Origin: a virus
Taxonomy: Duplodnaviria; Caudoviricetes
Virus record (IMG/VR): IMGVR_UViG_3300049781_000059
Location: 1 to 64,000 of that record
Direction: 5' to 3' (one strand)
DNA: 64,000 nucleotides
The translations under genes were made by a program, and so were the position numbers. This document shows, in pieces, positions 13,582 to 34,214 of the stretch (position 1 is its first letter; each line of letters begins with the position of its first letter). Under the pieces are notes generated by a model. The model did no database searches, had not been told where the DNA came from, and was given only the letters and a program-made list of their open reading frames with translations.

Positions 13582-13613
13582 CGGCCCACAACCAGCAGCT
13601 AGCACACAGGATA
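13582..13613 (-). promoter_or_regulatory. late-gene leader motif copy 1 (TATCCT-N11-GCTGGTTGTGGGCCG)
   Basis: One of 8 conserved copies upstream of structural genes. Confidence 0.75.
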
Positions 13614-13646
13614 CCCACCGGTCGTCGGCTGCCAGGCGCCTCGCGG

Positions 13647-14369
13647 TCAGCCGTAGAGTTCCAGCATGACGAGCCCGGTGCCGCCAGCGGCGCCATCGTT
13701 GCGGTTACCGCCGATGGACGCCGCGCCGCCTGCTCCGGCTCCGTAGCCGCGCGGCAGTGTGCCGACGCCGTCATTTGAGCGGGCGAAGCCGCCGTAGCCG
13801 AAGCGGGAGTCGCCACCACCGCCGGACACGCCAAGGCCCCCCGACAGTCGGAACGCCGTACCTCCGGCGCTGCCACCGTATGCGAGCTGCCCTGTCCCCG
13901 CTCCCGGGCCCGGCACGCCGACCTGCGTGTTGAGCGTGGTCCCCGACGTCATGTTCGCCGGGGAGCCATCGCCGCCGTTCGCGAGAACAATGCCGGCGAA
14001 GCTGCTGCTACCTCCGGCGCCTCCGGCGTTGTTGCCCTCCCCGCCCGCGCCGCCGGCACCGACAGCGATCGTCTCGACGTCACCGAGCAGGTCCGCCTCA
14101 AGGAGCGACATGGAGTAGCCGCCGCCCGCGCCGCCGGGCCGCGTGATCGCCTCGTCGTTCGCTGCGTCCGCGCCGGCCGATCCCCCGCCGCCGCCCTGCA
14201 CCTGTACGCGGATCCTGGCGAGCCACGGGTAATCCTCTTTGCGGAACTGGTAGGTGCCGGGCTCCTTGAAGACGAGGATCTCACGGAGTCCCATCGTGCC
14301 CGGATTGAGGCACAGTTCACCGGCGTCATTCACGTTGAAGTACTCGCCACAGGCGCAGACACTCGCCAC
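13647..14369 (-). CDS. glycine-rich minor tail protein
   Basis: QVQGGGGG...GGAGGGY...ITVGAGG-type Gly-rich fibre domain; MASVCACG start. Confidence 0.75.
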   Translation of the reverse strand: MASVCACGEYFNVNDAGELCLNPGTMGLREILVFKEPGTYQFRKEDYPWLARIRVQVQGGGGGSAGADAANDEAITRPGGAGGGYSMSLLEADLLGDVETIAVGAGGAGGEGNNAGGAGGSSSFAGIVLANGGDGSPANMTSGTTLNTQVGVPGPGAGTGQLAYGGSAGGTAFRLSGGLGVSGGGGDSRFGYGGFARSNDGVGTLPRGYGAGAGGAASIGGNRNDGAAGGTGLVMLELYG

Positions 14370-14394
14370 AGCACACCCCGTCCTCGGGAAGTCT

Positions 14395-14429
14395 GCCCGG
14401 CCCACAACCAGCGGCTAAGGGGAAGGGTA
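14395..14429 (-). promoter_or_regulatory. late-gene leader motif copy 2 (TACCCT-N11-GCTGGTTGTGGGCCGGGC)
   Basis: Conserved motif 26 nt upstream of the start at 14369. Confidence 0.8.
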
Positions 14430-14448
14430 GCGCCCGTGTTGCTGCTCG

Positions 14449-15003
14449 CTAGGGGGCTGTGGGCGGCTCCGTCGGTGCCGGCTCGTTGACGGGTGGCGTC
14501 TGGGGCAGTGGCACGGCCGTGCAGTGGACGGTGATTCCGGGTCCGGCAGGGATGGTGGGGAGCAGTCCGAGACCGAGAAGGGGGCGGGTGCGCCAGACCT
14601 GCAGGACGGCGGCCTCGGTTGTGACGTCGAGCAGTGTGACGGTGAGGCTGGTGTTGTCGTCGGGTTCGGTGTCGACTGGCAGTGCGGAGATCACGGGGGG
14701 TGAGGTGAGTGGTGCGGGGAACGTCCACAGGGCGCGGCCTGCGTTGTCGGTGACGGTGAGGCCTGCGAGTGGTGGCGTGCCGGGTGGTCCGGCCGGCCCG
14801 GGCTCGCCCTGGGGTCCGGGGGGTCCGGGCTCGCCGGGTCGTCCTGTGTCGCCCTGGGGGCCGCGCTCGCCGGGTGGTCCGGGTGTTGCTGCTCGCGTCC
14901 GTGCCGATACTTGAGCTGCTCGTGCCTGTTGCCGTACTTCCCGTAGTACGCCCGCCATGGGGCTGTCCGGGTTGCGGCGGGCGGCTGATCCTCGCACTGC
15001 CAT
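14449..15003 (-). CDS. collagen-like minor tail protein
   Basis: [34 protein letters not shown] followed by a beta-rich domain. Confidence 0.75.
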
Positions 15004-15004
15004 G

Positions 15005-16012
15005 TCATCCCCCTGCCGGGGCGAGGTGCACGGCGACGGTCTCGCCCGTGCTGTCTTCGGTGACCTTCAGACCGTTGATCTTCATCGACTGGTTGATGGT
15101 GCGGCATGTCCGTGTGGTGGTGACGTCGACGCACCAGCCGGGCACGAGCGATTCGAGGTTGATCGCGGCGTCGGGTGACAGCGTCGCCTCTTGCGAGGAG
15201 ATGAACACCGGCGCCGGAAGTGCGCCGCGGCGTCGTGAGCGTGCCGCGGCGTCCGCCGACGCCTGATCAAGGATCGAAGTCTCTTCGACGTACTGCTCGA
15301 GTAGCCCGTAGTACGGGTCTTTGCCGCCCGCGATGCCGAGGGCGCCGTCGCGGCCTTCGACGATCCAGCGGGTTCCGAGGGCGGTGCCGTCCTCGGACAC
15401 GGTGAGCCCGTCGGGGAAGTCGGCGTCGGTGAGCCGTCCGACGCGCGCCTGGTGGTCCTCCGGCATGAGTAGGATGCGGCGGCCGACGGTGGTGAAGTCG
15501 ATGCCTGTTTCGGCGAGTTTCCGCAGGTGATCGCCGGTTTGGCCGATGCTCTGTTCGTACTCGCGGTCGCCGAGGATGCGGGCCCGGCCGATGATTTGGA
15601 CTTCGTGTCCGGGGTCGTCCGGTGCGAAGCCGTCGCGGATGAGCCAGGCCGCGATCTCTGTCAGGTCCCGTTGCGTGAAGTGGATCGATTCGTGTGGGAC
15701 GCGGCGGTCGAGCCAGCCGAGCACGTCGACGGCTTGGATTTCGACGCCGTCCGCTGTCCAGTCCGGCAGGATGATGGGCCCTTCCCACACGAAGTGGCCG
15801 TTGCGGTAGATCATCAGGTTGTGTCGCCAGGTGCGGACGTTGGCGAGCGCGGCGCAGCAGCCGCGGTCGGGTTGGATTGTCACGCGGGCTGAGCTGAGGT
15901 CGTCCAGGACTCGTGTCCATTCGACTTTGGTCAGCACGTCCGCCGTGGTGATCGTCGCGCCGTCCCGGTCGACGATCCGCGCCGTGTGTGAGCCGCAGCC
16001 GAGTGTCGTCAT
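15005..16012 (-). CDS. minor tail protein (baseplate hub / Tal-like)
   Basis: Position two genes after TMP; W.R.LDD.S.A.V, RNG..VWEGPI, LE...E motifs of Sipho ReqiPepy6-type hubs. Confidence 0.75.
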
Positions 16013-16038
16013 GCCGGGCCGTCCCTTTCCCTGTGCGT

Positions 16039-16071
16039 GCCCGGCCCACAACCAGCGGCGTGGCAAGTCTA
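16039..16071 (-). promoter_or_regulatory. late-gene leader motif copy 3 (TAGACT-N9-GCTGGTTGTGGGCCGGGC)
   Basis: 27 nt upstream of the start at 16012. Confidence 0.8.
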
Positions 16072-17508
16072 GAGTCCTGGCCCGTACTCGAGTCCTGTGA
16101 GCGCGAGCCGGATCGTCGCATCGTCGGCCGGAGTGAAGATCGCGTCGGCGTGGATTGCGACGCAGTACGAGGCGCAGTCGAGCAGCGGGAACGTGAGGGG
16201 TGCGCCGTTGCGGCCGTAGGCGTCCGGTGATCCCTCGCAGACGCCGCCGCACTCGACGATCGCCCGGCCGATCTGCCCGTCGAGGCGGAGTGTGCCACCG
16301 GCTGGCACATAGGCGATCTCGTAGACGCTGTGCGGGTTGCAGCGCTCGGCGTCGACTACGTCTTCGCACGTCATGCCTTCGTGGTTGTCCGTGCGCTCGT
16401 AGATCTCGACGGTGATCCGGCGCAGGGCCTGACTGCCGGCATAGATTTCGATCATCGGTGCGGCGCCGAACCACCGCGGCCACGCCTCCAGGTCGAGTTC
16501 GAGGTACGTCGAGTTCACGGCGATCGCCCGGCAAAAGCACGTGTCCGGTTCCGGAGGGGCCGGTGGTGTCGGTGTCTGACACCTCGGATCCGCGCACCGT
16601 TCCTGCGGGTCCGGGCATGCGGCGAGCCGGCACGTCTGGTCGCAGGGGGCGTCGCGGTCCAGGACGGACCAGGACACCGCGCAGTCGGCATCGTCCACGA
16701 CCGGCGCCGTCACCGAGTCGGCCGTGCACGCCGCGTCCGGCTCCAGACAGACAGGGCTGCTCGGTGCGGTCGGGCTGCGGTGTACACACCAGGTGATGCA
16801 CTCGGCGCCGTCATCGGTGGGCAAGGCCAGGTCCAGGGTCGGTATGGGGTCGGACCACTGCCACGGGGATGCTGCGGTGAGAACGAATTCGACGGTGATG
16901 ATGTCGGCGCCGGAGCTGCATTGGCCGCTGGTGCAGCCGTCGCCGGAGCGGCTCGTCACCCGCGGCCCGTCGATCAGTGCGACGCGGCGCAGTGTCCGCC
17001 GGTGCCGCGCCGCGAACTCGTCTGGGGTGAGGCCCTCGCCGGGACAGCAGTTGTAGATCGTCATGCAGTCGTCGCTGCAGGGGCCGCCGCAGCCTGCGAG
17101 TGCCTGTCGTAGCCAGCGCAGCCCGTACTCGGCGCCGCAGCACGAGGCGCCGAGCAGGAGGCCCGTCACGGTGACGGTGAGGGGTTGGGGGACGGCAGGG
17201 CCGATGACGGCGCCTCCGGCAGCGGACTGCGTCACCGTCCGGGAGACGGGGTTGTCGTCGAGCCCTTCGACGGTGAGGACCAGCAGTCCGGCGAACTCGC
17301 CGGACTCCGGCACGTCCGGGTCATACCAGGGGGCGTTGTCCTCAGCCGGTGTGGTGTAGGGCTCGTCGCCGACGAGTTGCGCGGTGAACGTTTCGCACGC
17401 GCAGACGCCGATGCTGTCGAGCGGTGACCCGACCGTCTGGAGATACGTCTCGAGCCGGGCCGAGTTGGCGATCTCGACATCGCCGAGCGCGAGGTAGCCG
17501 TCGAGCAT
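16069..17508 (-). CDS. distal tail protein (Dit-like), Cys-rich
   Basis: First gene after TMP; MLDGYLALGDVEIANSARL, PWYDPDVPES.EFAG. Confidence 0.75.
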   Translation of the reverse strand: MLDGYLALGDVEIANSARLETYLQTVGSPLDSIGVCACETFTAQLVGDEPYTTPAEDNAPWYDPDVPESGEFAGLLVLTVEGLDDNPVSRTVTQSAAGGAVIGPAVPQPLTVTVTGLLLGASCCGAEYGLRWLRQALAGCGGPCSDDCMTIYNCCPGEGLTPDEFAARHRRTLRRVALIDGPRVTSRSGDGCTSGQCSSGADIITVEFVLTAASPWQWSDPIPTLDLALPTDDGAECITWCVHRSPTAPSSPVCLEPDAACTADSVTAPVVDDADCAVSWSVLDRDAPCDQTCRLAACPDPQERCADPRCQTPTPPAPPEPDTCFCRAIAVNSTYLELDLEAWPRWFGAAPMIEIYAGSQALRRITVEIYERTDNHEGMTCEDVVDAERCNPHSVYEIAYVPAGGTLRLDGQIGRAIVECGGVCEGSPDAYGRNGAPLTFPLLDCASYCVAIHADAIFTPADDATIRLALTGLEYGPGL

Positions 17509-17531
17509 GGGCGAGCCCTTCAGGATGAGTG

Positions 17532-17571
17532 GCCCGGCCCACAACCAGTCGGCAGCTGTTTGGCAAGTCTA
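17532..17571 (-). promoter_or_regulatory. late-gene leader motif copy 4 (TAGACT-N16-ACTGGTTGTGGGCCGGGC)
   Basis: 24 nt upstream of the start at 17508. Confidence 0.75.
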
Positions 17572-17600
17572 GGCAGCCGGAAGTCCCAGCCTGTCGGCGT

Positions 17601-20600
17601 CTACATTCCGTAGGCCAGCGCCATGCGGTGCATGACACGGCGGGCCGTCGCGTCGGGGTCGCCGACCGCCGCCATGTTGAAGACGGGGGCGATCGTCACT
17701 GTCTGCGCGCCACTGCCGCTCCCAGAGGGTTCGGCGCCGATGATGCCCATCAGCCCGGACTGGGCGACGAGCTGCCGCGCCCGCTTGGGTTTCGTCAACG
17801 GGATGATCACCTCGGGTCCGGCCTCGCCGACGAGTGCGTGCGTGGGCCCCCACACCATGCCGCCCTCCGCGAACGGCAAGTACTTTTTCACGGCGTCGGG
17901 CAGCCCGCTCTTGATCGAGGACATGATCCGCCCGCCGATGTCCCCCAGAGCACCGATGATCTTCCCCGGGAGTCCCGTGAAGAGGCCGACAATCCCGGAG
18001 ATCAGACTGGACACGGCGCTCTGCACCCCTCCGACCGCGCTTGTGAAAGCACTGGAGATCTTCGATCCGACCGACGACAGCGCCGATCCGATCTTGCCGG
18101 GCAGTCCCGAGAAGAACGACACGACGGACGAGCCGAAGCTGCGCGCCGCGCCGAGCGCCTGCGTACCGGCCGACGTGACAACCGAGGTGATCTTTCCGGG
18201 CAGCGCCGAAATCGCGGACGCAGCCCGCCCGGGGAGCTGCTGGAAGAACGACGCCGCCGACGACAGGAACCCCGAGATTGCGGAGGTCGCCGTCGAGAAC
18301 GCCGAACTGAGGACGCCGAGCAGCGCCGCGCCCAGCGACTGCAGGGCCGACACGATCCGGCCGGGCAGCTCGGTGAAGATGAACACCACGGCCGCGATCG
18401 CCGTCAGCAACGCGATCGCGAGTCCGGCGATGGCTTGGACGAACAGATCGACGAGCAGGCCGGGCAGTGCCTGGAGGACGGCGAGGATCTGCCCTGGCAA
18501 GCCCGTGAAGAACGTGATCACCGTCGTGAACGCCGTCGTGATCCACGTGCCGATCGTCGTCACGAGCGTGGAGAAGAACACCGAGATCGTCGACCCCAGG
18601 CTCGACAGCGCCCCGACGATCATCGTCGGCAGGTTCGTGATGAACGTGACCGCGCCGGTCAGGAAGCCGAGCAGCCCGGACAGGACCCCCACCACGGCGG
18701 AGATCACCGGCACGACGGCCTGGATGATCAGCCACGACTCGAAGGCGATCGCCGCCTGGAGCAGCGGCGCGACGATCGAGAGGATCTGCCCGACGAGCGG
18801 CGCCAGGCTCGCCACGAACTCGGCGATCGGCGGGACCAGCGGCAGGATCGCGTCGACCAGCGCCAGGAACACCTGGATCAGCGACGGCAGGATCGGCAGC
18901 AGCGCGCCGATGATCTGGTTGATCAGCGGCAGGAACGCGTTGACGACCTGGATCGCCGCGTCCGCGAGCGCCGTCAGCAGCGGCGCCAGCCCGGTGATCA
19001 CGGACGCGAGCGCCCCACCGAGCGCGGCAGCGAGCGGCAGCAGAGCTTGAGCCACCCGCGCGAAGGCGTCCGCGAGGGGCGGCAGGACCGGCATCAGCGC
19101 GCCGACCAGGGCGGCGATGATCGGCTGGAACAGTGTGACCAGGTTTTGCAGGACCGGCGCGAGGACCGTCGCCAGCGACGCAACGAGCTGGCCGACGAGC
19201 GGCAGGATCGGCGCCAGCGCGGTGATCACTCCGCCGATCGCCTCACCGACCGGGCCCAAGCTGGGGCCGATGACGGCGAAAGCGTCGGCGAGGCCCTGCG
19301 CGACCGCGGACAGGCTCGGGGCGATCGCGGCCAGCGCCGGGCCCAGGGCGTTGACGACGCCGACGATCGCCGGGCCGATCGTCGTGAAGATCGGCATGAG
19401 GGCCGGGGCGATCGCGCCGACCTGCTGCACAAGCGCGGACAGGATCGGCCCGAGCTGCTGCGCGATCGTCCCGACCGTGCGGAAGATGTTGCCGATCGCG
19501 TCCTGGCCGGCGGCGGAGTTGACGAACTCGGCGAACTGGCCGGTGATCCGCTGCAGGTTCGCGAGGAGCCCGCCGCCGGACGCGTTCGCGGCCTGGAAGA
19601 CGCCGGAGAGGATCTGCCCGACGTTCGACGCGATCGCGCCGAGTTGCCGGAACACATCGAGCGCCCCGCGGACCTCCTCGACGGCCTGCCCGGACGCGGC
19701 GAGCGTCGACAGCCAGGTTCCGAACTCGGCGCCGATCTGGGCGATGCTCGCGCCGACCTGCGGGCCGAACGCCTCCAGGACGGCGGCGGCGATGTCGAGG
19801 AGACCGGCGGCGACCGGCACGATCGCCGCCTGCAACCCGGAGGCGGCCTGCGTCGTACCCTGAATGATCGTCCGCAGCGGCACGAGTGCCTGCTGTGACG
19901 CGGCGAACTTGAGGCCCTCGCTGGCTGCCTTGCCGAACTCGGCGGACAGCGCCGCCAGTTCCGTGCGCAGCGGTAGCAGGTTTCGCAGCGCCCCTTCGAC
20001 CTGCCCGGCGAATTGGGCAAAGAACGACTGCTGGATCGCCTGCTGAACGGCCTGGAGTTCGGGCGCCAGCTCCCGCACCGCGCGGACTGCGGTCTGCGCG
20101 GCCGGGGCGAGCTTGTCGAGCGCCTCCTGGAACTCCTCGGCGCTGCCCGTCAACGCCGCCGACAGAGCGTCGGATACGCCGAGGACGGCGAGCCGCAGCG
20201 TGTTGATGGCGACCTGCGCTCCGGCGACGGCAGCGGGCAGCGCGGCGACGATGCCGGCGGCGGGGGCCAGCGCAGCGACGAGCCCGCCGACCGCGGAGGC
20301 GGCGCTCGCCGCGGCGATCCCCACGGCGCCCAGTACGAGAAGCTGCTGCAGCGCCCCGGCGACACGGCCGGCGATGCCGCCGAGGCCGCCCAGCGCACGC
20401 GTCAGCCGGTCCGAGTCGACATCGACGTCCGCCCGGACCGTGACATCCGGCGGCCGGTAGCCGCGGATGCGCCGGTCGAGGTCGTCGAGGTCCGGGACAA
20501 CACGGATCGAAACCTCTTCGCCGGCGAGCGCCGCGCGGATCCGGTCGACGAAGCCGGTCAGGTCCGGGGCGACCGGCAGGTTGATCGAGCCGAGGCCGCG

Positions 20601-20849
20601 GAGCCCGTCGAGGACTTGGGCGTCGAACCGGGACAGGTCCGGGTCGACACGGACGGACACGGCGGCGGCGTCGAGGCCGCGTTGAATGTTCCGGCGGATC
20701 TGAGTGCCTGCGTCACGCGTCGCACGGTCCAGGGCGCGTTTGATGCGGAGGCCGACGTCACGGGCGTCAGCGACCGCATCACTGTCGTCGAGCGTGATCG
20801 TGATGCGCGCGGAGCCGTAGTCCTCGCTGTCACCGGCTGGGGTGGTCAC
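17601..20849 (-). CDS. tape measure protein
   Basis: 1082 aa Ala/Leu-rich helical repeats; C-terminal LPFAEGGMVWGPTHALVGEAGPEVIIPL. Confidence 0.95.
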   Translation of the reverse strand: MTTPAGDSEDYGSARITITLDDSDAVADARDVGLRIKRALDRATRDAGTQIRRNIQRGLDAAAVSVRVDPDLSRFDAQVLDGLRGLGSINLPVAPDLTGFVDRIRAALAGEEVSIRVVPDLDDLDRRIRGYRPPDVTVRADVDVDSDRLTRALGGLGGIAGRVAGALQQLLVLGAVGIAAASAASAVGGLVAALAPAAGIVAALPAAVAGAQVAINTLRLAVLGVSDALSAALTGSAEEFQEALDKLAPAAQTAVRAVRELAPELQAVQQAIQQSFFAQFAGQVEGALRNLLPLRTELAALSAEFGKAASEGLKFAASQQALVPLRTIIQGTTQAASGLQAAIVPVAAGLLDIAAAVLEAFGPQVGASIAQIGAEFGTWLSTLAASGQAVEEVRGALDVFRQLGAIASNVGQILSGVFQAANASGGGLLANLQRITGQFAEFVNSAAGQDAIGNIFRTVGTIAQQLGPILSALVQQVGAIAPALMPIFTTIGPAIVGVVNALGPALAAIAPSLSAVAQGLADAFAVIGPSLGPVGEAIGGVITALAPILPLVGQLVASLATVLAPVLQNLVTLFQPIIAALVGALMPVLPPLADAFARVAQALLPLAAALGGALASVITGLAPLLTALADAAIQVVNAFLPLINQIIGALLPILPSLIQVFLALVDAILPLVPPIAEFVASLAPLVGQILSIVAPLLQAAIAFESWLIIQAVVPVISAVVGVLSGLLGFLTGAVTFITNLPTMIVGALSSLGSTISVFFSTLVTTIGTWITTAFTTVITFFTGLPGQILAVLQALPGLLVDLFVQAIAGLAIALLTAIAAVVFIFTELPGRIVSALQSLGAALLGVLSSAFSTATSAISGFLSSAASFFQQLPGRAASAISALPGKITSVVTSAGTQALGAARSFGSSVVSFFSGLPGKIGSALSSVGSKISSAFTSAVGGVQSAVSSLISGIVGLFTGLPGKIIGALGDIGGRIMSSIKSGLPDAVKKYLPFAEGGMVWGPTHALVGEAGPEVIIPLTKPKRARQLVAQSGLMGIIGAEPSGSGSGAQTVTIAPVFNMAAVGDPDATARRVMHRMALAYGM

Positions 20850-20877
20850 CGGGCACCCTCACGAAGTCGTGAATGGT

Positions 20878-20910
20878 GCCCGGCCCAGAACCAGTCGGCG
20901 GCGGCAGCTA
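20878..20910 (-). promoter_or_regulatory. late-gene leader motif copy 5 (ACTGGTTCTGGGCCGGGC; weak -10 TAGCTG)
   Basis: 29 nt upstream of the TMP start. Confidence 0.65.
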
Positions 20911-20932
20911 CTGCGCTGTCGCGATCTCCAGA

Positions 20933-21304
20933 TTATCTGCTACGTGCGCTTCCGAGGCGTGCGTCCTCGTTGGCGACCTGGGACATGAGTGCCTGCGCGG
21001 CGGCAAGGTCAAGGCGCGGCTTGGCCTGCCGTGCCCGGCCCTCACTCGATCTGCTGCCGCGTGCGTGGGGTGGCGGCGCGTACAGTTTCGCCCTGTTGCG
21101 CTGCCGTGCGGTGTCGTCCTCGGCTGCCGCGTCCATGGCGGCTTCGGCCGCGTTCAGCAGACGTTTCAGCGTCCACGTGTGCGGGTCGACGCCTTGGAGG
21201 GCGAGACTCCCGTCGAACGCCTCCCAGCTTGCGGCGAGGCTGTCGCAGATCCGGAAGACGGCATAGTAGGGCGGTTCCCGCCCCCGAACAGTTCGACGAC
21301 CCAT
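20933..21304 (-). CDS. tail assembly chaperone, downstream (frameshift) ORF
   Basis: Overlaps upstream chaperone in the -1 frame, lacks a good own RBS, directly precedes TMP. Confidence 0.7.
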   Translation of the reverse strand: MGRRTVRGREPPYYAVFRICDSLAASWEAFDGSLALQGVDPHTWTLKRLLNAAEAAMDAAAEDDTARQRNRAKLYAPPPHARGSRSSEGRARQAKPRLDLAAAQALMSQVANEDARLGSARSR

Positions 21305-21702
21305 TCGAGGAGTTCGACGATCACGCGGCTCGGCAGTCGCAGCGCGTCGACGACGCGTGCGCCTTCGTGCTGGTCGGCGAAGGCGCCCGCCTCGTCGAAG
21401 TCCTGGAAGGAGTCGAGGATCTTGCCGCCTTGGACGACGTCGAGGCGGGTGAAGAACTCGGCGGACTCGGCGAGCATCTGCCGGGCGAGGAACACGCGCA
21501 CGGCGCGCATCGTCCGCCGCAGATCGTCCGTGTCGGCAGCGGTCAGGTTCTCCAGGTCGACGCCCTTCGCCTGCTGCGACTGACGCAGTTCGGCGTAGGC
21601 GTCCATGAAGTCGTCGCCGAACACCTCAGGCTCGAACAGGAGCTGGTGTTCGCCGATGGCGGCGACGTGGGGTTCTGTGTTGAGGGCGAACGTCTTCTGC
21701 AC
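21166..21702 (-). CDS. tail assembly chaperone
   Basis: Position before TMP; low-complexity tail after ELFGGGNRPT. Confidence 0.75.
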   Translation of the reverse strand: MQKTFALNTEPHVAAIGEHQLLFEPEVFGDDFMDAYAELRQSQQAKGVDLENLTAADTDDLRRTMRAVRVFLARQMLAESAEFFTRLDVVQGGKILDSFQDFDEAGAFADQHEGARVVDALRLPSRVIVELLEWVVELFGGGNRPTMPSSGSATASPQAGRRSTGVSPSKASTRTRGR

Positions 21703-21729
21703 AGGTCTGGTCCCTGTCTCCCGTTCCTC

Positions 21730-21764
21730 GCCCGGCCCACAACCAGCGGCTTGTACGTAGGGTA
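21730..21764 (-). promoter_or_regulatory. late-gene leader motif copy 6 (TACCCT-N11-GCTGGTTGTGGGCCGGGC)
   Basis: 28 nt upstream of the start at 21702. Confidence 0.8.
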
Positions 21765-22756: not shown

Positions 22757-23566
22757 TTACGGCCAGATCTGCGAGCGGGGCCGCCGGTAGTCGGGGCTGA
22801 AGACGCGGCTGGGCGAGGTGAGCCGGTGGGGGTTCGCTGACATGAGCCATAGATCTACGCCGGGCAGGCCGGTGCGCATCTCGGTGTAGAGCAGCGTCGG
22901 GTCTGTGAACTCCTGGTCGACGCCTTGGCGGGAGAGGCGGGTGACGTTCGCGGGCATTTTGCAGCCGCAGGCGCCGCCGCCGTTGCACCCTTTGAGGAGG
23001 TGGCAGACGAGTTCGCTGTAGGCGGCGATCGCGGCGTCGTCCAACGGGAGCCCGATGCGGTAGTGCACGCCGAATGTGCCCGGCTCGCCCAAGGGAGCGT
23101 CGAGTTGCTGGCAGTCGGGCCAGCAGCCGCCGTCGGTACGCACCAGCAGCCCCGGTGAGTCGACGCGGTACGCGGTCTCGGGCAGGGTGACGCCGTCGAC
23201 TTCGACGCCGAGGATGTCGTACACAGGGCCTTCGAGACGGACCTCGCACAGCTCGGTGCAGGAGCAGTCCGAGGCGCAGCCGCACACGGATGCGTTACGC
23301 CACTGCCCGTCGGAGCCGATATAGGGAATCCACGGTGACCCGTTCGACCAGGACGAGGCGAGCGGCAGGCCGTCGAGGCATCGGCGGCGGCAGGGCCGCA
23401 CCGTGTACGGGCAGGAGGGGCCCCAGCGCCGGCCGGACAGGTTGAACAGGATCGTGGTGGCGACCCGCTTCCAGCGTTCCAGGACCGCGTCGTCGGCACC
23501 CTCGGCCGCGGGGCAACACGAAATATCGAGTGGCCAGGGCTCACAGAGGGGCCGTTGTAGGGCCAC
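22757..23566 (-). CDS. head-to-tail adaptor
   Basis: ATTILFNLSGRRWG..C..TVRPC, VTRLSRQGV, TGLPGVDLWL..NP resemble cluster-B-type adaptors. Confidence 0.7.
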   Translation of the reverse strand: MALQRPLCEPWPLDISCCPAAEGADDAVLERWKRVATTILFNLSGRRWGPSCPYTVRPCRRRCLDGLPLASSWSNGSPWIPYIGSDGQWRNASVCGCASDCSCTELCEVRLEGPVYDILGVEVDGVTLPETAYRVDSPGLLVRTDGGCWPDCQQLDAPLGEPGTFGVHYRIGLPLDDAAIAAYSELVCHLLKGCNGGGACGCKMPANVTRLSRQGVDQEFTDPTLLYTEMRTGLPGVDLWLMSANPHRLTSPSRVFSPDYRRPRSQIWP

Positions 23567-23667: not shown

Positions 23668-24354
23668 TTACGGCACCGGGACGGGCACCGCCGCGTAGTC
23701 ACACGACGGGACCGGCGGCGGTGTGGTCGTGACGAATGTGCGGCGGTGGCAGGAGCTGTCGAGCGGAGTGAGCATCGGGCCCGGGGTGCCGGCGGCGTCG
23801 GTCGGCTGGACGTTGTAGGGGCCGACGCCCCAGGCACCTCCGGCGCGCGTCGAGCCGGTGATCTGAAGTGTCACCGCCTCCGATCCGATCTCCAGGTCGC
23901 CGAGGAGACCGTTCGTCACCCACGGCAGCAGGAAGTAGATCCACTGTCCTTCGGCGCCTTCGACGCACTCTTCGCCGAGGACTTCCGCCCACAGTTCCAG
24001 GGCGAAGCCGGTGTCGCAGCGGACGCTGCAGGTGTCGAAGCCGATGGGGTTGCCGTCGTAGCCGAGGACGACGGGGTTGCCGGTGAGGATTTCGATCAGC
24101 TCCGGGGACACGCTGTAGACGTTCATCTCCAGGTCGAAGCCTCGGAAGGTGGGGCATCCGCGCTTGAAGCCGCAGACCCTCCCATTCGCCGCCTTGTACT
24201 CGATGTCTTCGCCTTCGTCGCTGTTGTTGTTCATGGCGAGGCTGGCGAAGCAGTCGAAGACGAAGCCGTTGTCGACGCCGGGGATGGGGTTGCCGCACTG
24301 GTCGAGCCGGGTGACGCGCATGACGTCGGCGTTGGCTATCAGTGGACAGGACAT
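23668..24354 (-). CDS. major tail protein
   Basis: MRVTRLDQCG, KAANGRVC, GFALELWA, YFLLPWV resemble cluster-B-type tail tube proteins; own leader motif. Confidence 0.8.
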   Translation of the reverse strand: MSCPLIANADVMRVTRLDQCGNPIPGVDNGFVFDCFASLAMNNNSDEGEDIEYKAANGRVCGFKRGCPTFRGFDLEMNVYSVSPELIEILTGNPVVLGYDGNPIGFDTCSVRCDTGFALELWAEVLGEECVEGAEGQWIYFLLPWVTNGLLGDLEIGSEAVTLQITGSTRAGGAWGVGPYNVQPTDAAGTPGPMLTPLDSSCHRRTFVTTTPPPVPSCDYAAVPVPVP

Positions 24355-24380
24355 TGGCCGTAGCTCCTTTGCGTACAGGA

Positions 24381-24413
24381 GCCAGGCCCAAAACCATCGG
24401 CGTAATCAGTCTA
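24381..24413 (-). promoter_or_regulatory. late-gene leader motif copy 7 (TAGACT-N9-GATGGTTTTGGGCCTGGC)
   Basis: Degenerate copy 27 nt upstream of the major tail start. Confidence 0.7.
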
Positions 24414-25662: not shown

Positions 25663-25698
25663 GGGTAGCGGCGCGGCCGACGAGCCGCGCCGCTACCC
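25663..25698 (-). terminator. stem-loop after giant modular gene
   Basis: GGGTAGCGGCGCGGC / GCCGCGCCGCTACCC perfect 15-bp stem. Confidence 0.7.
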
Positions 25699-29756: not shown

Positions 29757-31198
29757 AGTCGTACTCCTTGCGTGTAATTGACGATGACGGTGCCGTCGGT
29801 GGCGGTGATGGTCAGGGGGCCGGTGAGGGAGGCGTCGCCGTCGTGGACGAGGCTCCACGTCGCCGTCTCGCCGTCTCGGAGGGTGCTGGTTCCGTCCGCT
29901 GTCGTGATCGCCCCGGTGCCGTCGTGCGCAATGGCGGTGACGGAGTGGATCAAAGGGGTGGAGGCGGCGTCCCAGGACTGACCCGGGGCGAGTTCCCGGC
30001 GGCGGACCTGCGCACCGAATGCCGCGGGCGCCCCCTGGTCGTCGTCGGCGTCGCAGTCCACCGGGTTCAGAGGGGTGTACGGGCCGCTGAGATCGCACAG
30101 GTAGGTGCCGAGGGTGCTGACCGTTCCCTGGCAGTCGACGCCGAGCAGCTCGATGTACCAGGTGTCGGCGATGCCGTCCCCGTCGGTGTCGTCGCAGCGG
30201 TCGGCCTGGATGATGTTCTGGGCGCCGCAGTCGCCGTCGCAGAAGCCGACGGTGCCAGCCACCGGGTACGTGCTGCCGTCTGGCGTGTAGTCGGTGTGCC
30301 CGGTGATCTGGCCGTTCTCGTCGCGGGCGTAGTCGCGGAGGAAGCGGCGCACGCTGCCGTCGGCGAGCGTGTCACACAGCACGACAAGGTCCTTCTCCGG
30401 CTGTGTGACACCGGCCGGGCAGGTCGTGATCTCGCCTTGTGGTGTGTACGTCTGGCCGGTAGCGGCGTTGATGAGGCGCACCCCGGATACGCTGCCGTCC
30501 GAGTTGTACGTGTACTCGATCAGGACGAGCCCGAATACGGTGCCGCTGGCAGGGTCGATGTCGCAGAACGTGCCGCCAGTCGACACGCTGCGCGGTTCAC
30601 CGCACGCGACCGTGCCCACTGGCGGCTGCCCGGCCGAGAAGACACCGCTGACCAGGTTCACCCAGCCTTCTTGCCGAACGATGCCGTCGCAGTCGCGGGT
30701 GACGATGGCCGCGATGGGGGTGCCGTCGGCGAGGCACAGGCCGAGCGTCGCCAGCGGCGCCCGCTGATCGGCGCAGTCGGAGCCGCCGTCGCAGGAGCGG
30801 ACGTCGCCGACGACGAGGTGCGGTGTCTCCCCGTCGACTTCCACGTCGACGTAGGCGGCGGTGCCGTCGGACAGGAACGTGAACTTCCGCAGGAACGGGC
30901 GGCCGGAGTCGTCGCAGAGCATCTCGGTGTGGCACTGCATCGTGCCCTGCTCGCAGTCGACCGGTGCGACCGGCGTGTACGGCGTCGACGGGTCGTCCTG
31001 GTAGATGACGACGAGTTGGCTCGTGCCGTCCTGCTTGATGCACCACAGTTCGCTGTAGGTGGTGTCGGGCTGGCCGTCGCCGTTGGTGTCGTCGCAGCGC
31101 AGGACACACGTGGTGGTGACGCACGTCGGCGGGCACTCGCATTCCCCGCCGCCGCCTCCCCCGGCGCCGCAGGTGCAGCCGCTGTAGGAGATGGCCAT
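29753..31198 (-). CDS. 481-aa Cys-scaffold repeat protein (no passengers)
   Basis: Same LCD/FLR/Y..G..C and RCDDxxGD...ELW...PYxPxxPxDC units as the neighbour. Confidence 0.85.
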   Translation of the reverse strand: MAISYSGCTCGAGGGGGGECECPPTCVTTTCVLRCDDTNGDGQPDTTYSELWCIKQDGTSQLVVIYQDDPSTPYTPVAPVDCEQGTMQCHTEMLCDDSGRPFLRKFTFLSDGTAAYVDVEVDGETPHLVVGDVRSCDGGSDCADQRAPLATLGLCLADGTPIAAIVTRDCDGIVRQEGWVNLVSGVFSAGQPPVGTVACGEPRSVSTGGTFCDIDPASGTVFGLVLIEYTYNSDGSVSGVRLINAATGQTYTPQGEITTCPAGVTQPEKDLVVLCDTLADGSVRRFLRDYARDENGQITGHTDYTPDGSTYPVAGTVGFCDGDCGAQNIIQADRCDDTDGDGIADTWYIELLGVDCQGTVSTLGTYLCDLSGPYTPLNPVDCDADDDQGAPAAFGAQVRRRELAPGQSWDAASTPLIHSVTAIAHDGTGAITTADGTSTLRDGETATWSLVHDGDASLTGPLTITATDGTVIVNYTQGVRL

Positions 31199-31596
31199 CA
31201 GCTATCCCCCTTGGGGTGGGCTTGGCGGCGGTGGGTGTTCCGGCCGCGTTCGGTGGGGAAGGTGCGCGGGCACAGATCGCAGGCGTAGACGCCGCTGCCG
31301 TCGTCGTCGGGGGTGGGTGCGTCCTCGAGCGGCGCGAAGTCCGGGGCGGGAGCGTTCGGGGTGAACGCCTCTTCGGTGGCCACGCCCAGCAGGTCCCGGC
31401 CCTCGTCGTCCTGGGGTGACACGTACCGGTGCCCGTCGACGAGCGACCCGATCAGCAGCTCTTCCGGCATGTGCGTGAACATGCCTGGGGGGACGGCGAA
31501 CTCGCTGTGGGAGCACGTCTCGACCTGCGGGCTCTGGGCGGTCGCCCACCGGGCGAATGCCGCCCGCCGGTCAGGCGCGGGCCGCACTTTGATCAT
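31198..31596 (-). CDS. hypothetical protein with C-terminal C2H2 zinc finger
   Basis: YACDLCPRTFPTERGRNTHRRQAH. Confidence 0.7.
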   Translation of the reverse strand: MIKVRPAPDRRAAFARWATAQSPQVETCSHSEFAVPPGMFTHMPEELLIGSLVDGHRYVSPQDDEGRDLLGVATEEAFTPNAPAPDFAPLEDAPTPDDDGSGVYACDLCPRTFPTERGRNTHRRQAHPKGDS

Positions 31597-31598
31597 CG

Positions 31599-32435
31599 TC
31601 AGCAGCACGTCGAGATCCTCACTGCCGCCGCCTCACAGCACGCCACCTCGATCACAGAAGTGCGCTCGGCGAGGACGTACCGGTCATTCAGGCGGGTATC
31701 GATACTCCCGGCCTCGGTGGGCGGGTTGATGTCGAGCGGCCCGCGGCGCACCCGGACCGGGCCCGTCACGTACAGCCACGCCTCCCCGTCGGCGGGCGCC
31801 ATGCACGTGGCGCCGCCCACGTTCGTGGCGTACCCGGCGCCGAAGACGACGCCGTTGCCCATGAGGGTCTCCGGGCATTGGGTGTCGCGGGTGCGGGTGG
31901 CGATGTTGCAGCAGCCGAGCAGTGCCGCCGCCCCGGCAGGAATGTGCAGGATGCCTTCGCCGCCGTACTGCTCGGCCAGCCAGCCTTCGAGCGCGGCGAC
32001 GCCCTGCGCGGCCGGGAGCGCCCCCGAGCCGGGGGTGAGGTCGTTGCCTTCGGCCATCGTGCACAGGGCGTTCAGCATGAACCAGGATTCGAGGGCGCGC
32101 TGCTCGCCCATGCGGAGGGTTTCCGCAGCATGCTCTACGGCCTCGTCGTAGGTCATGCCGAACGTGGAGCACGTCGACCCGGCATACACGGTCACCGGGT
32201 CGAACTCGCACACCCCGGGCCGGTCGAAGATCTTCGATGCCGGGTTCGGCACGGTCGGGGGCGGACAGTCCCGCTCCCACGTGTGCGTTTCAGCGCACGA
32301 CAGCGGCACGAACTGGGTGCCGTTCAGTTCGTGCATGTCGGTAACGTCTACGACCTCTACGCACCCGCCGAGGAGGCCGTAGGGGCTGGGATTGCCACGG
32401 ATGGGGTCTACGGTTTTGCGCATCCCTGCCGCCAT
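31599..32435 (-). CDS. second capsid-like protein (putative major capsid pentamer protein)
   Basis: Follows MCP; PYGLLG, F.PVTVYAG..C, GEQRALE, V.ALEGWL, GN.VVFGAGY, AERT pattern recalled from cluster-B pentamer proteins. Confidence 0.65.
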   Translation of the reverse strand: MAAGMRKTVDPIRGNPSPYGLLGGCVEVVDVTDMHELNGTQFVPLSCAETHTWERDCPPPTVPNPASKIFDRPGVCEFDPVTVYAGSTCSTFGMTYDEAVEHAAETLRMGEQRALESWFMLNALCTMAEGNDLTPGSGALPAAQGVAALEGWLAEQYGGEGILHIPAGAAALLGCCNIATRTRDTQCPETLMGNGVVFGAGYATNVGGATCMAPADGEAWLYVTGPVRVRRGPLDINPPTEAGSIDTRLNDRYVLAERTSVIEVACCEAAAVRISTCC

Positions 32436-32460
32436 CTGCCTCACGCCCTCTCAAGTCCGG

Positions 32461-32495
32461 GTGCAGCCCCGGCCGGCAGATGGCCGGGGCTGCAC
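32461..32495 (-). terminator. stem-loop after major capsid gene
   Basis: GTGCAGCCCCGGCC / GGCCGGGGCTGCAC perfect 14-bp stem. Confidence 0.7.
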
Positions 32496-32506
32496 GCACG
32501 GGTAGG

Positions 32507-34153
32507 TCAGGCGACGGGGCAGGCGGCCGTGGCGCGCGGTCCGACAGAGCCGTCAGCGCAGACCGGGATGGTGATGGCTCGCGCCTGCGGCCCGCGGTAG
32601 ATGAGGGCGTTGCAGGACTCGAAGAACAGGGCGGTCATGTCGTTGGTGCGGAGCAGGGTGCTGTCGTGGATGACCCCGAGGTTGATCTCCGGGCCGCGGC
32701 CCATCTGGAACGCGCCGGCCGGGTAGAGCAGGGCCTGCATGGTGGCTGGCCAGGCGGTGGCGGGGGTGGTGCCGCCGATGTTGGCGGGGACGGCCGGGGG
32801 GAGGCCCTTGACCCACTGGACGCGGACGCCGAGGTCGGCGAACGCGTTCTCGACGCAGTTCTGGTTGAGGGTGCAGACGTCGACGCCGTCGCGGCGGGCG
32901 ATGTCGGCGAGGAACATGTTCTTCGCCCAGTACGGCAGGACCAGCTCGAGGCCGATCCGCTCGCAGAGGCTGAACCGTTCGGTCATGTCGGCGATCTGCA
33001 GGGCGAGCGCCCCGTACACGGCGGAGAACGACGCGAACGACGGTGCGGTGGTCACTGCGGTGGCCTTGGTGAGGGCCTGCTGGTACATGGCGGCCTTGAG
33101 ACGCATCTCGTAGGCGACCATGGCACGCCGGATGTAGAAGGCGTTCAGCTCGGGGAAGAACCGCTGGGAGAGGATGCCGGCCTGGATGCAGGCGCCGTAG
33201 GCGGTGCAGCGGACTTCGACCGGGTCCACACAGGGGATCTTGAAGCAGGGCTTCGTCGGGTCGCCGTCGACCGCGCTGATGTCGTCGGCTTCGGTCCAGA
33301 TCCACGACATCGCGGTGACGTCCAGCTCGGGCGTCATGTAGTAGCGCAGGCCACCACGCGACAGGTTGAGCTCGGGCAGGTCCCACAGGTTGTCGGGACA
33401 CGAGATCTCGGTGAAGTCGTACACCGTCTCGGAGGGGGCGCACCAGCCGCCGGATGCGACGAGGTCGCCGCCCTTGAGGCGCCGCTGGTCGGCGGCCTTG
33501 AGGACCTTGGTGGTGCCCTCTTCCGGGGAGCCCGCATCGTTGATGATCAGGTCCTGCGGGAACGGCAGCTGGTAGGACGCGGCGAGGGCCTTGCCGCCGT
33601 TCGCGACCAGGTTCGCGACCTTGGTGACGGACTCGGTCAGCCCCTCCATGTTCAGCGGGGCGCCCAGGGTGGCGCCGGGGACCTCGGCGGAGGCGACGAT
33701 CGTGACGGCCGGGGTGCCGGAGTTCGGCATCGGCTGCCGCGGCTGCCGCTCACGCACGGTCGCCAGGCTGATGATCGGGCGGCGCACGACAGCAGAGGAC
33801 GCGGCGACTTCCTCGACGGCCGGCTCTTCCGCTTCGGCGGCCGGCTCCTCCTCGTCGACGGCCACGGTCTCGTCGCTGTCGCTGTCGGTGGCGGTGTCTT
33901 CGCCGAGTACCTGCACGGCGAGTTCGTCGAGTTCGGCGACGGCGGCCTGTGCGGCTTCGACGCGGGTGGCCTGCTCGCTGCGCAGGGCTTCGATGCCGGT
34001 GGCCAGCTCGCGCAGGGCGGGCAGGTCGTCGGTGGTGAGGTTCGGGTCGGCACGCCGGGCCTGGAATGCCTCGGTCGCCTGGGTGATGTGAGCGTCGAGG
34101 TCCTCGGCGCTCAGGCTGCTGAAGTCTGTGGGGAGCTCGTAAGGCTCGGCCAT
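32507..34153 (-). CDS. major capsid (hexamer) protein with N-terminal scaffold-like domain
   Basis: LVASGGWCAPSETVYDF, LPELNLSRGGL, KPCFKIPC, RFFPEL as in cluster-B MCPs; acidic coiled-coil N-terminus. Confidence 0.9.
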   Translation of the reverse strand: MAEPYELPTDFSSLSAEDLDAHITQATEAFQARRADPNLTTDDLPALRELATGIEALRSEQATRVEAAQAAVAELDELAVQVLGEDTATDSDSDETVAVDEEEPAAEAEEPAVEEVAASSAVVRRPIISLATVRERQPRQPMPNSGTPAVTIVASAEVPGATLGAPLNMEGLTESVTKVANLVANGGKALAASYQLPFPQDLIINDAGSPEEGTTKVLKAADQRRLKGGDLVASGGWCAPSETVYDFTEISCPDNLWDLPELNLSRGGLRYYMTPELDVTAMSWIWTEADDISAVDGDPTKPCFKIPCVDPVEVRCTAYGACIQAGILSQRFFPELNAFYIRRAMVAYEMRLKAAMYQQALTKATAVTTAPSFASFSAVYGALALQIADMTERFSLCERIGLELVLPYWAKNMFLADIARRDGVDVCTLNQNCVENAFADLGVRVQWVKGLPPAVPANIGGTTPATAWPATMQALLYPAGAFQMGRGPEINLGVIHDSTLLRTNDMTALFFESCNALIYRGPQARAITIPVCADGSVGPRATAACPVA

Positions 34154-34180
34154 GACCGTGTCTCCTGTGACTGCTAGGAG

Positions 34181-34214
34181 ACCCGGCCCACAACCAGCGG
34201 TCGAAAGAATCTTA
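34181..34214 (-). promoter_or_regulatory. late-gene leader motif copy 8 (TAAGAT-N10-GCTGGTTGTGGGCCGGGT)
   Basis: 28 nt upstream of the MCP start. Confidence 0.8.

Follow-up and report, generated by a model that had tools for sequence, protein, structure and literature searches.

A covarying leader hairpin upstream of virion genes in actinomycete phages, a candidate RNA control element

In phage Mu, the Com protein acts on a translation-inhibition stem in the mom mRNA, at one site and for one gene. The lambda nut boxB/N and HK022 put elements (put is ~65–70 nt with two stems) head long operons, with one or two occurrences in a genome, and are under no constraint in their distance from the next start codon. 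Stoperators, as in mycobacteriophage L5 and other Cluster A phages and in R4-like Streptomyces phages, are bound as double-stranded DNA by the immunity repressor, and they vary from one immunity group to another. Unexplained asymmetric intergenic repeats occur in Microbacterium clusters EC (5'-TAGaCTATaGGTgTaAgC), EI and EG, and SAS/ESAS sequences in cluster EF and in Cluster K mycobacteriophages; the function of these repeats was called unclear by the authors (Jacobs-Sera et al. 2020, PMC7302621).

The element described here was examined in a window of 64000 nt from a Streptomyces phage (positions 1 to 64000 of IMG/VR record IMGVR_UViG_3300049781_000059). Like the actinobacteriophage repeats, it is oriented, located in short gaps 21–30 bp before start codons and upstream of the RBS, present in many copies and conserved within a group, and the EC motif begins with TAGACT (PMC7302621). 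However, the sequence and the phage groups differ, most EC repeats are located among non-structural genes, SAS overlaps the RBS but the box is 12–18 nt upstream of it, and the covarying RNA structure present in the box has not been reported for those repeats (PMC7302621). No paper or Rfam family describing the element was found, and the leader hairpin is apparently an undescribed control tag.

A search of the window with the consensus (G)CCGCTGGTTNTGGGCCGGGC, allowing up to 3 mismatches, identified eight matches (positions 13579, 14395, 16039, 17532, 20878, 21730, 24381 and 34181), all on the minus (coding) strand, where 0.17 were expected by chance; none of 100 shuffled sequences reached eight. 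A covariance model (CM) run over the 74-kb record did not find copies beyond these. The oriented copies reported in the initial annotation were thereby confirmed, as were their intergenic placement (8/8) and the identity of the virion gene that follows each one, though the box-to-start distance, given there as 24–33 nt, is 23–29 nt when measured from the end of the 20-mer. The leader hairpins are:

34179–34203, minus strand, MCP gene (32507–34153), CM 34.7 bits, sequence verified, A1-U21 variant
24379–24403, minus strand, major tail gene (23668–24354), CM 34.0 bits, compensatory A5-U18 pair
21728–21752, minus strand, chaperone-like gene (21166–21702), CM 37.2 bits
20876–20900, minus strand, tape-measure (TMP) gene (17601–20849), CM 28.1 bits, 2-nt bulge (GA) variant
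17530–17554, minus strand, phrog_838 (Dit-like) gene (16069–17508), CM 31.4 bits, 2-nt bulge variant
16037–16061, minus strand, minor tail gene (15005–16012), CM 38.7 bits
14393–14417, minus strand, fibre gene (13647–14369), CM 36.7 bits
13577–13601, minus strand, 279-aa fibre-like gene (12710–13549), CM 36.9 bits, compensatory U3-A19 pair

The box, initially annotated as a linear sequence motif, was found to be a structured RNA hairpin of 21–25 nt with the layout G1C2C3-(G4 bulge)-C5-(U6 bulge)-G7G8-[U9 U10 N11 U12 G13 G14 G15]-C16C17-G18-G19G20C21. Repeated independent compensatory changes were seen at four pairs, counted over 296 units having a hexamer: 1-21 (GC 280, AU 4, UA 1, GU 2), 2-20 (CG 280, UG 8, UA 8), 3-19 (CG 224, UG 52, UA 11) and 5-18 (CG 293, AU 2, UA 1), with C-A absent from both 2-20 and 3-19. 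The compensatory variants precede at least 4–5 identified gene families in different contigs. Among 106 distinct boxes, 84.1% of cells were pairing, compared with 44–51% when the register was slid by one, and both-sided change was seen in 6 of the 8 pairs; the observed covariation score was matched by 0 of 500 shuffles. RNAalifold recovered the hairpin de novo in 6 of 8 gene-family alignments, and loop positions 10 and 13 also covary (UG 288, GA 8, no mixed combinations). No variation was seen in bulges G4 and U6, in the inner GG/CC pairs or in most of the loop; judged from these patterns, pairing alone is required in the outer stem, while the other parts have a fixed sequence. Wobbles occur as U.G and solely on the sense strand, and their template strand equivalents would be A/C mismatches, indicating that the RNA is the folding strand. 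At the level of sequence comparison, the covariation and the sense-strand wobbles show that the box acts as a folded single strand, which supports the earlier placement of the motif inside the transcript, directly downstream of a -10-type hexamer. The hairpin is very probably a functional transcribed RNA element.

An alternative is that each late promoter has a repressor or activator site at +1 to +25, with the box recognised as double-stranded DNA in the way that the repressor gp71 of L5 recognises its stoperators or LacI recognises O1. The many asymmetric, one-orientation sites in late-region intergenic gaps are like the Cluster A and R4-like stoperators, and one of the module's genes encodes a C2H2 finger protein. 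However, variation in the box obeys RNA pairing rules, with U.G tolerated 52 + 8 times and C/A never, an asymmetry that recognition of double-stranded DNA does not predict. Moreover, the same sequence is found in phages with unrelated immunity and early regions, where operator specificity would normally diversify, and in lytic Woodruffviruses. As the box is a structured RNA hairpin, the DNA-binding activator or repressor proposed in the initial annotation is disfavoured, and this reading is considered highly improbable.

A TAnnCT hexamer was found 5–11 nt upstream of the hairpin in ~76% of ~300 units, this being the distance to the first paired base. TANNNT was present 7–12 nt upstream in 189 of 248 pooled contexts (background 0.56 per position), and the enrichment at this fixed place was 50–100 fold. 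T-12, A-11 and T-7 were required by the TANNNT search pattern; 91% had C at position -8 and 57% had G at position -14. In the window, the hexamers TATCCT, TACCCT (twice), TAGACT (three copies, not two as first reported) and TAAGAT lie 7–9 nt upstream of the 20-mer, except for a distance of 14 nt at 17532; the earlier value of 9–11 nt reflects a slightly different motif boundary. By unit, the hexamers are:

34209–34214, minus strand, TAAGAT, -10-type hexamer of the MCP unit, 8 nt upstream of the 20-mer
24408–24413, minus strand, TAGACT, major tail unit
21759–21764, minus strand, TACCCT, chaperone-like unit
20930–20935, minus strand, TAATCT, TMP unit, 32 nt upstream of the box, TAA being the stop codon of the preceding ORF
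17566–17571, minus strand, TAGACT, phrog_838 unit, 14-nt spacer
16066–16071, minus strand, TAGACT, minor tail unit, TAG being the stop codon of the preceding gene
14424–14429, minus strand, TACCCT, fibre unit
13608–13613, minus strand, TATCCT, 279-aa gene unit

For the TMP copy, the weak TAGCTG (20905–20910) noted previously is probably not the promoter; TAATCT at 20930–20935 probably is, and the equivalent in phage TurkishDelight is TAGTCT, which precedes its TMP box by 31 nt. The hexamer is likely to be a promoter, and the transcription start predicted from it would leave the hairpin 0–4 nt from the 5' end.

Instead of a promoter, the single-stranded UAnnCU could be a site in a long transcript that is cut by RNase E, RNase J or a phage nuclease, leaving hairpin-capped messages much as T7 RNase III sites do. 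The repeated, oriented, intergenic units of an AU-containing hexamer with an adjacent stem, and the lack of a -35 element, are consistent with such processing. However, the hexamer shows the signature of a -10 element of the sigma-70 family (T-12, A-11 and T-7 being set by the search pattern) and G is enriched at -14, an identical hexamer without the hairpin is found 35–45 nt before Woodruffvirus late genes, and terminator-like GC hairpins abut some hexamers, making a processing signal very unlikely.

A stem-loop this close to the 5' end could also act without any factor, shielding late messages from 5'-end-dependent decay (RNase J, RNase E, RppH) and raising expression. The predicted single-stranded overhang of just 0–4 nt, the location of the Woodruffvirus hairpin before the MCP and major tail genes, whose products are the most abundant, and the fact that no reader is required are in agreement with this. 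However, a stem alone would suffice, yet three bulged or loop segments are invariant across phages with ~50% identical proteins. In addition, the stem is weak (~-5 kcal/mol), and the TMP units and tandem pairs place the hairpin ~25–30 nt from the predicted 5' end. A simple stabiliser is thus quite unlikely.

The eight units cover ~25 genes, which supports the motif as a mark of separate late transcription units but not the proposal that each virion gene has its own promoter. Strong hairpins had been reported between several units, and one was found directly before the MCP promoter; however, most unit boundaries in the window have none, and two others are inside the MCP unit:

34222–34252, minus strand, 12-bp GC hairpin, terminator-like, lacking a U tail, immediately before the MCP promoter
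32461–32495, minus strand, 14-bp GC hairpin inside the MCP unit, directly following the MCP stop codon, no promoter or box after it
25663–25698, minus strand, ~16-bp GC hairpin inside the MCP unit, after a large Cys-rich gene

The main rival explanation is a tag for processive antitermination or anti-pausing, comparable to boxB/N, HK022 put, LoaP or TAR: as the 5' hairpin emerges, it would modify the RNA polymerase transcribing it, by itself or together with a small protein, so that GC hairpins and Rho sites in long late units are read through. As in nut boxB and put, the RNA is promoter-proximal, with a covarying stem and fixed unpaired bases (the invariant bulges and most of the loop), and is phage-specific and lacking in the host. 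The terminator-like hairpins at 32495–32461 and 25698–25663, with no promoter after them, are also as expected, and fit antitermination as well as they fit an RNA operator. No boxA, N-like protein or conserved early gene was found in the hairpin-bearing phages compared, and the lack of a host regulon and of a conserved early protein fits a factor-free, cis-acting, put-like element. However, there is one element per short unit here, and some units that begin with the hairpin are very short or consist of a single gene, with the next promoter right after (fibre gene, 13647–14369), so that there is nothing to read through. The distance from the box end to the start codon peaks at 28 nt and is tightly held at 23–30 nt, which antitermination signals do not need. 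The element is also shorter than put, and its competition in the TMP leader with a helix masking the SD is a translational feature. Antitermination is therefore considered unlikely, and we lean slightly towards control being post-transcriptional.

The hairpin is best explained, with a probability of about 0.5, as an RNA operator in the 5' leader, common to the late messages and co-regulating their translation and/or stability. Each of the eight units would be transcribed separately from a host-type promoter consisting of a -10 element only (TAnnCT, often with G at -14, without -35), with transcription starting 0–4 nt before the hairpin. The hairpin would end 23–30 nt ahead of the start codon, where the ribosome-binding region begins, and a putative trans-acting factor, most likely a protein encoded within the conserved virion module or alternatively part of the host RNA machinery, may bind the invariant bulges and loop to coordinate virion-message translation and/or stability.

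In the TMP leader, an alternative helix was identified:

20849–20883, minus strand, alternative helix, fold z = -4.2, conserved in 25–33 orthologous leaders

The box's 3' strand together with the adjoining ACC (20883–20875) pairs with GGGUGCCCGG (20858–20849), which spans the SD and GUG start of TMP, and this helix and the box hairpin are mutually exclusive. Pairing between the box and the SD region is generally just ~1.2 kcal/mol above controls, and is clear for TMP only. By analogy with Com in phage Mu, stabilising the hairpin in this leader may open the ribosome site, and the direction of the effect is inferred. The likeness to Com/mom lies in a small phage RNA hairpin just upstream of the ribosome site, its exclusivity in the TMP leader with a helix masking the SD and start codon, and a small phage-encoded zinc-finger protein, for which RNA binding is here a candidate role. 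However, there are 8–11 sites heading a whole virion module, most leaders have no conserved masking helix, and there is no sequence or family relationship.

The virion module was the sole part common to the hairpin-bearing phages, and no early genes were shared by the window phage, the G001 and G002 prophages and TurkishDelight. This excludes a conserved early regulator as the reader, and excludes the element's HTH and RHH proteins, suggested previously, as a general one. Two candidates are encoded nearby:

31198–31608, minus strand, candidate reader 1, 136-aa protein, ferredoxin-like domain at the N terminus, then an acidic linker and, at the C terminus, a canonical C2H2 zinc finger
34573–34728, minus strand, candidate reader 2, 51-aa M-x-C-x-C protein, upstream of the MCP unit

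The zinc-finger protein is a doubtful candidate, and the small CxC protein has an equally modest chance. No informative structural relative was found for either, and as both are in the same module as the hairpin, co-occurrence is weak evidence. In Woodruffviruses and L213, an Arg-rich tail replaces the zinc-finger tail, and the L213 box is still canonical; in Gordonia phages, the gene at this position encodes no zinc finger and has no evident similarity. A paralogue of the 51-aa protein is encoded at 34262–34570, between its gene and the MCP promoter, and each of the hairpin-bearing groups examined, Gordonia phages included, has a member of the M-x-C-x-C family just before the MCP unit.

Hundreds of copies of the element were found across related actinomycete phages, including at least 58 IMG/VR contigs, with a variant form in Woodruffvirus and Gordonia Wizardvirus. 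Before orthologous genes with 50–60% amino acid identity, the box is kept and the flanks have wholly diverged. Every strong pattern or CM match in two Streptomyces chromosomes was inside one prophage, on one strand; by the initial annotation's own test, the motif is phage-specific rather than a host motif. Woodruffviruses carry the hairpin solely before MCP, major tail and TMP, and a bare TAGACT before many late genes, suggesting that the hairpin supplements late promoters and is unlikely to be the temporal late-gene switch first envisaged. TurkishDelight carries 10 copies, some of them in tandem, which suggests a role for binding-site number.

A consensus search of the window, which spans the initial 64 kb of a 74,198 bp IMG/VR record, identified exactly eight box matches, all on the minus (coding) strand, against a chance expectation of 0.17. 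The initial annotation had reported eight copies of a leader motif on this strand, always intergenic and shortly before start codons, and the same picture was obtained here, as all eight boxes are intergenic and end 23–29 nt before the start codon. The boxes and the genes that follow them are:

34181, minus strand: major head protein (MCP; phrog_777)
24381, minus strand: major tail protein (phrog_792)
21730, minus strand: chaperone-like protein (phrog_12617)
20878, minus strand: tape measure protein (TMP)
17532, minus strand: phrog_838 protein
16039, minus strand: minor tail protein (phrog_837)
14395, minus strand: fibre protein
13579, minus strand: 279-aa protein without family

The data described here strongly support a real RNA element, structured and with a defined role in the genome, that heads late transcription units in a large family of actinomycete siphophages. 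The element is apparently undescribed. No Rfam covariance model (4227 families) matched either strand of the window between 12000 and 36000 at E ≤ 1, and no account of the box element, or of the phage TurkishDelight that carries it, was found in full-text literature searches; the TAGACT matches in the phiJoe paper proved to be primers.

Six of the window boxes have a TANNNT hexamer 7–9 nt upstream, and a seventh has one at 14 nt. The earlier observation of a -10 hexamer ahead of the motif therefore stands for these copies, but the weak TAGCTG assigned to the tape measure copy is probably not a promoter. A proper TAATCT is found 32 nt upstream of that box, and the TMP box of TurkishDelight has TAGTCT 31 nt upstream. 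Among 248 pooled distinct contexts, 189 carry TANNNT 7–12 nt upstream (background 0.56 occurrences per position). Anchoring on the hexamer gives TAnnCT as the signal; C occupies -8 in 91% and G occupies -14 in 57%, and there is no -35 element. In its fixed place and extended -10 features, it corresponds to sigma-70-family promoters of the actinobacterial TANNNT type that have only a -10 element. A generic consensus scan found no TTGACA/TATAAT-type promoters, as expected for promoters of this kind, and the scan for classical terminators and sigma-70 consensus promoters stayed at background level. Resemblance of the element to sigma-54, ECF or T-loop sequences was judged by eye, and neither the spacing nor the key bases fit. 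In two window units, the hexamer takes its first three bases from the TAG or TAA stop codon of the preceding gene:

16066–16071, minus strand: TAGACT overlapping a stop codon
20930–20935, minus strand: TAATCT overlapping a stop codon

The 248 contexts delimit a 21-nt box with sharp edges (G1 C2 C3 G4 C5 U6 G7 G8 U9 U10 N11 U12 G13 G14 G15 C16 C17 G18 G19 G20 C21), with unconserved flanks and a Shine–Dalgarno (SD)-like G run downstream. Counts for the variable pairs, drawn from 296 hexamer-bearing units, are:

Positions 1 and 21: GC 280, CC 8, AU 4, GU 2, UA 1, CU 1
Positions 2 and 20: CG 280, UG 8, UA 8; C/A never
Positions 3 and 19: CG 224, UG 52, UA 11, GG 8, AG 1; C/A never
Positions 5 and 18: CG 293, AU 2, UA 1

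CCGA/CCGT variants account for the eight GG cells at 3-19 and for the eight CC at 1-21; with a 2-nt bulge, they can adopt the same helix. Aligning 106 distinct boxes gave pairing in 84.1% of cells, compared with 44–51% when the register is shifted by one, and both sides have changed in six of the eight pairs. The observed covariation score was reached by none of 500 shuffles. As the compensatory variants precede several different gene families on different contigs, they represent repeated events. Loop positions 10 and 13 also covary perfectly (U/G 288, G/A 8), and RNAalifold recovered the hairpin in six of the eight gene families when the leaders of each were run separately.

The tolerated wobbles are U.G when read on the sense strand, whereas the template strand would carry A/C at these places, indicating that it is the sense strand that folds, and the simplest reading is that the folding strand would be RNA. 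This variation obeys the pairing rules of RNA, with U.G tolerated, C/A never found and Watson–Crick double changes present, which contradicts a reading of the box as a double-stranded DNA operator. The pairing-independent sequence conservation of stoperators and operators was likewise not seen in the box. No variation is seen at G4, at U6, in the G7G8/C16C17 pairs or in most of the loop, a pattern typical of a hairpin bound by a specific partner. A hairpin acting simply as a message stabiliser would leave the invariant bulges and loop unexplained.

The first paired base is 5–11 nt, most often 8–9 nt, downstream of the hexamer, and transcription in actinobacteria usually starts 6–7 nt after the -10 element. 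On that basis, the hairpin is predicted to begin 0–4 nt from the 5′ end of the transcript. This does not hold for the TMP units, whose hexamer is ~31 nt upstream, or for the second hairpin of each tandem pair in TurkishDelight. A 5′ end generated by cleavage at an RNA processing site is less likely, given that the hexamer has the features of a -10 element.

An exact 17-mer of the element was found in 97 stretches of IMG/VR sequence, which come from no fewer than 58 contigs and frequently include more than one per contig, and in many Streptomyces, Kitasatospora and Embleya genomes, while single matches in unrelated phyla were at the level expected by chance for 596 Gb. Orthologous virion genes in other contigs retain the box at only ~50–60% amino acid identity, and the distance from box to start codon peaks at 28 nt. 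That the motif might be equally frequent in host DNA, named in the initial annotation as a ground for rejecting its reading, was not borne out by pattern and covariance-model searches of two whole Streptomyces chromosomes (7.3 and 9.6 Mb), which place the element in one prophage in each. Matches with 0–1 mismatches are confined to one strand of one 25–50 kb region per chromosome, except for two 1-mismatch matches elsewhere in one of them (G002), and 2-mismatch matches occur in both at the same rate as a reversed-pattern control. When 150 first-pass candidates per genome were scored with the covariance model, 8 and 11 copies were inside the prophages and one borderline match was elsewhere.

TurkishDelight, a cultured temperate phage of S. 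scabiei, has 10 box copies at the same gene positions. Tandem hairpin pairs, 1–15 nt apart, precede its major tail and TMP genes (L239; coordinates 18511–18574 and 22902–22952), and tandem pairs ahead of TMP recur in several prophages (L104, L105 and L029). In the lytic Woodruffviruses Xkcd426, TP1604 and Mischief19, the hairpin has a variant loop, CGUUAGG, and precedes only MCP, major tail and TMP. Many other Woodruffvirus late genes have a bare gTAGACTgg ~35–45 nt before the start codon, without the hairpin. It has the look of a late promoter typical of phages, made up of a -10 element alone and a fixed discriminator. This sequence is highly conserved, at no fewer than six late genes per genome in Xkcd426 and Mischief19. 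The Gordonia Wizardviruses Bakery and Twister6 have the same stem and bulges with the loop CCGAGGG, downstream of TACAGT, TATCCT or TATTCT and ahead of MCP, major tail, TMP and, in Twister6, also the lysin gene. This distribution indicates that the hairpin is an add-on to late promoters and not the late switch itself.

All proteins of the 74-kb record were compared using tblastn with the prophage regions of the two chromosomes (G001 and G002; 100 kb each), Xkcd426/Mischief19 and TurkishDelight, and what they share is limited to the virion module, which runs from portal to lysin. No early genes common to the four hairpin-bearing genomes were found at E values of 1e-3 to 1e-4, at which a very short Arg-rich peptide could escape. 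As only the virion module is shared, a conserved early regulator cannot be the factor that reads the hairpin; apart from virion genes, the search returned one weak 78-aa HTH match to TurkishDelight gp71. The large terminase (window 40258–41631, minus strand) is shared with Xkcd426 at 48% identity but not with the two prophages, which do share the rest of the module, so that a mosaic joint falls between this gene and the DUF1360/portal genes. The MCP (window 32507–34153, minus strand) has an N-terminal extension of ~123 aa over which Xkcd426 alone aligns among the tblastn hits listed, a pattern suggesting a fused scaffold or delta domain.

Little is known of how actinobacteriophages control their late genes. 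Oriented intergenic repeats before start codons are listed as unexplained in one comparative paper after another, and for one such repeat, sequence data alone reveal an RNA structure that starts separately promoted virion messages and is part of the virion module rather than of a regulatory region. The element offers a concrete and easily tested handle on the timing and amounts of structural proteins in Streptomyces and Gordonia phages, and bears on why mosaic exchange of early regions leaves late expression undisturbed. The compact promoter and hairpin unit could also find use in Streptomyces engineering, as an expression part. The closest published counterparts are the SAS/ESAS elements and the oriented intergenic repeats, likewise unexplained, that lie 21–30 bp ahead of start codons in Microbacterium phage clusters EC, EI and EG (PMC7302621). 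SAS/ESAS (Cluster K/EF) is a conserved 13-mer in the position of the ribosome-binding site and complementary to the 3′ end of 16S rRNA, whereas the box ends 23–30 nt before the start codon and is followed by a separate SD-like G run.

The favoured reading of the element is a shared 5′-leader RNA operator that sets the translation and/or stability of virion messages. It is preferred because there is one copy per short unit, single-gene units included, at a fixed distance from the start codon, because copies occur in tandem, because a competing helix masks the SD in TMP leaders, and because the hairpin is added to selected genes in Woodruffviruses. The main rival is processive antitermination of the boxB, put, LoaP or TAR-like kind, which would account for the missing conserved early protein and for the GC hairpins inside the MCP unit, the second and third of the following:

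34252–34222, minus strand: strong GC hairpin before the MCP promoter
32495–32461, minus strand: strong GC hairpin directly after MCP, inside the MCP unit
25698–25663, minus strand: strong GC hairpin after a large Cys-rich gene, inside the MCP unit

Set against the boxB of N/nut antitermination, the hairpin is close to the promoter and its loop is fixed; in sequence, and in a shape with two or three bulges, it departs from boxB. No N-like early protein was found by tblastn in the four genomes, nor a boxA beside the box, as its flanks are not conserved. The put RNA of HK022, which acts in cis on RNA polymerase, is a two-stem structure of ~65–70 nt, whereas the box is a single hairpin of 21–25 nt with unconserved flanks.

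In all TMP leaders, the 3′ strand of the box and the next bases pair with the SD and GUG start in a conserved long helix, and this helix and the box hairpin are mutually exclusive. In the window (fold z -4.2), its arms are:

20883–20875, minus strand: first arm of the alternative TMP-leader helix
20858–20849, minus strand: second arm of the alternative TMP-leader helix

In the Mu Com/mom system, a protein-binding hairpin lies beside, and competes with, a stem masking the SD and start; such a competing stem is seen here in the TMP leaders and is not evident in the other seven gene families. Over all genes, pairing of the box with the SD region exceeds that in shuffled or reversed leaders by only ~1.2 kcal/mol, in samples that are not independent; general SD masking by the 3′ half of the box was therefore rejected, and this reading is retained for TMP alone. 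A trans-acting antisense RNA was also rejected, as the rest of the 74-kb record contains no complement of at least 10 nt, and a tRNA-like RNA at 62818–62929 forms no convincing duplex.

A more specific proposal, to which we give roughly one chance in four, is that the hairpin is the RNA operator of a hitherto unrecognised late-gene control system of actinomycete siphophages, travelling with the virion module, in which a module protein would bind the 5′ hairpin of every virion message, coupling capsid and tail synthesis to the state of assembly. If so, the whole structural regulon would be under autogenous translational control, independent of the early circuitry of the phage. The binder would be either a C2H2/Arg-tail protein encoded two genes past MCP or a tiny CxC protein encoded before MCP. 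Both are leads only, tied to the hairpin by the shared module.

The first candidate is a 136-aa protein (31198–31608, minus strand) whose N-terminal domain is modelled with confidence as ferredoxin-like and is followed by an acidic linker and a C2H2 finger of canonical form (C-x2-C-x12-H-x4-H). Its homologues number at least 140, all in Streptomyces (prophages), and in Woodruffviruses an Arg/Lys-rich tail replaces the finger. Fold searches gave only generic ferredoxin-like matches (Z < 5), and in Pfam the finger matches mostly generic C2H2 families, with the dsRNA-type JAZ finger in 6 of 52 members. In Mu, Com is a small zinc-finger protein that binds the RNA; RNA binding by this C2H2 finger protein of the virion module is putative. 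The type of tail does not strictly track the type of loop, as L213 combines an Arg-rich tail with the canonical box and the G002 prophage mixes loop types. The finger itself, C-x2-C-x-R-x-F-x-T-E-R-G-R-D-T-H-R-R-Q-x-H, is of eukaryotic style, inside a phage virion module.

The second candidate, a 51-aa M-x-C-x-C protein (34573–34728, minus strand), is encoded upstream of the MCP unit; a paralogue (34262–34570, minus strand) separates it from the MCP promoter. The candidate's modelled small beta-beta-alpha-beta domain gave no informative match in fold searches, and the ESM Atlas and Pfam returned only a sub-threshold match to DUF7196. A member of this family adjoins the MCP unit upstream in every group examined, in both Streptomyces and Gordonia, and further members are:

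L239 (TurkishDelight), 12464–12883
L225 (one of Xkcd426/Mischief19), 14460–14639
L241, 11498–11644

Family members are 48–62 aa, with the N-terminal M-x-C-x-C followed by the beta-beta-alpha-beta domain. The family is present as a tandem duplicate in the window and as a fused two-repeat protein in TurkishDelight and the G001 prophage.
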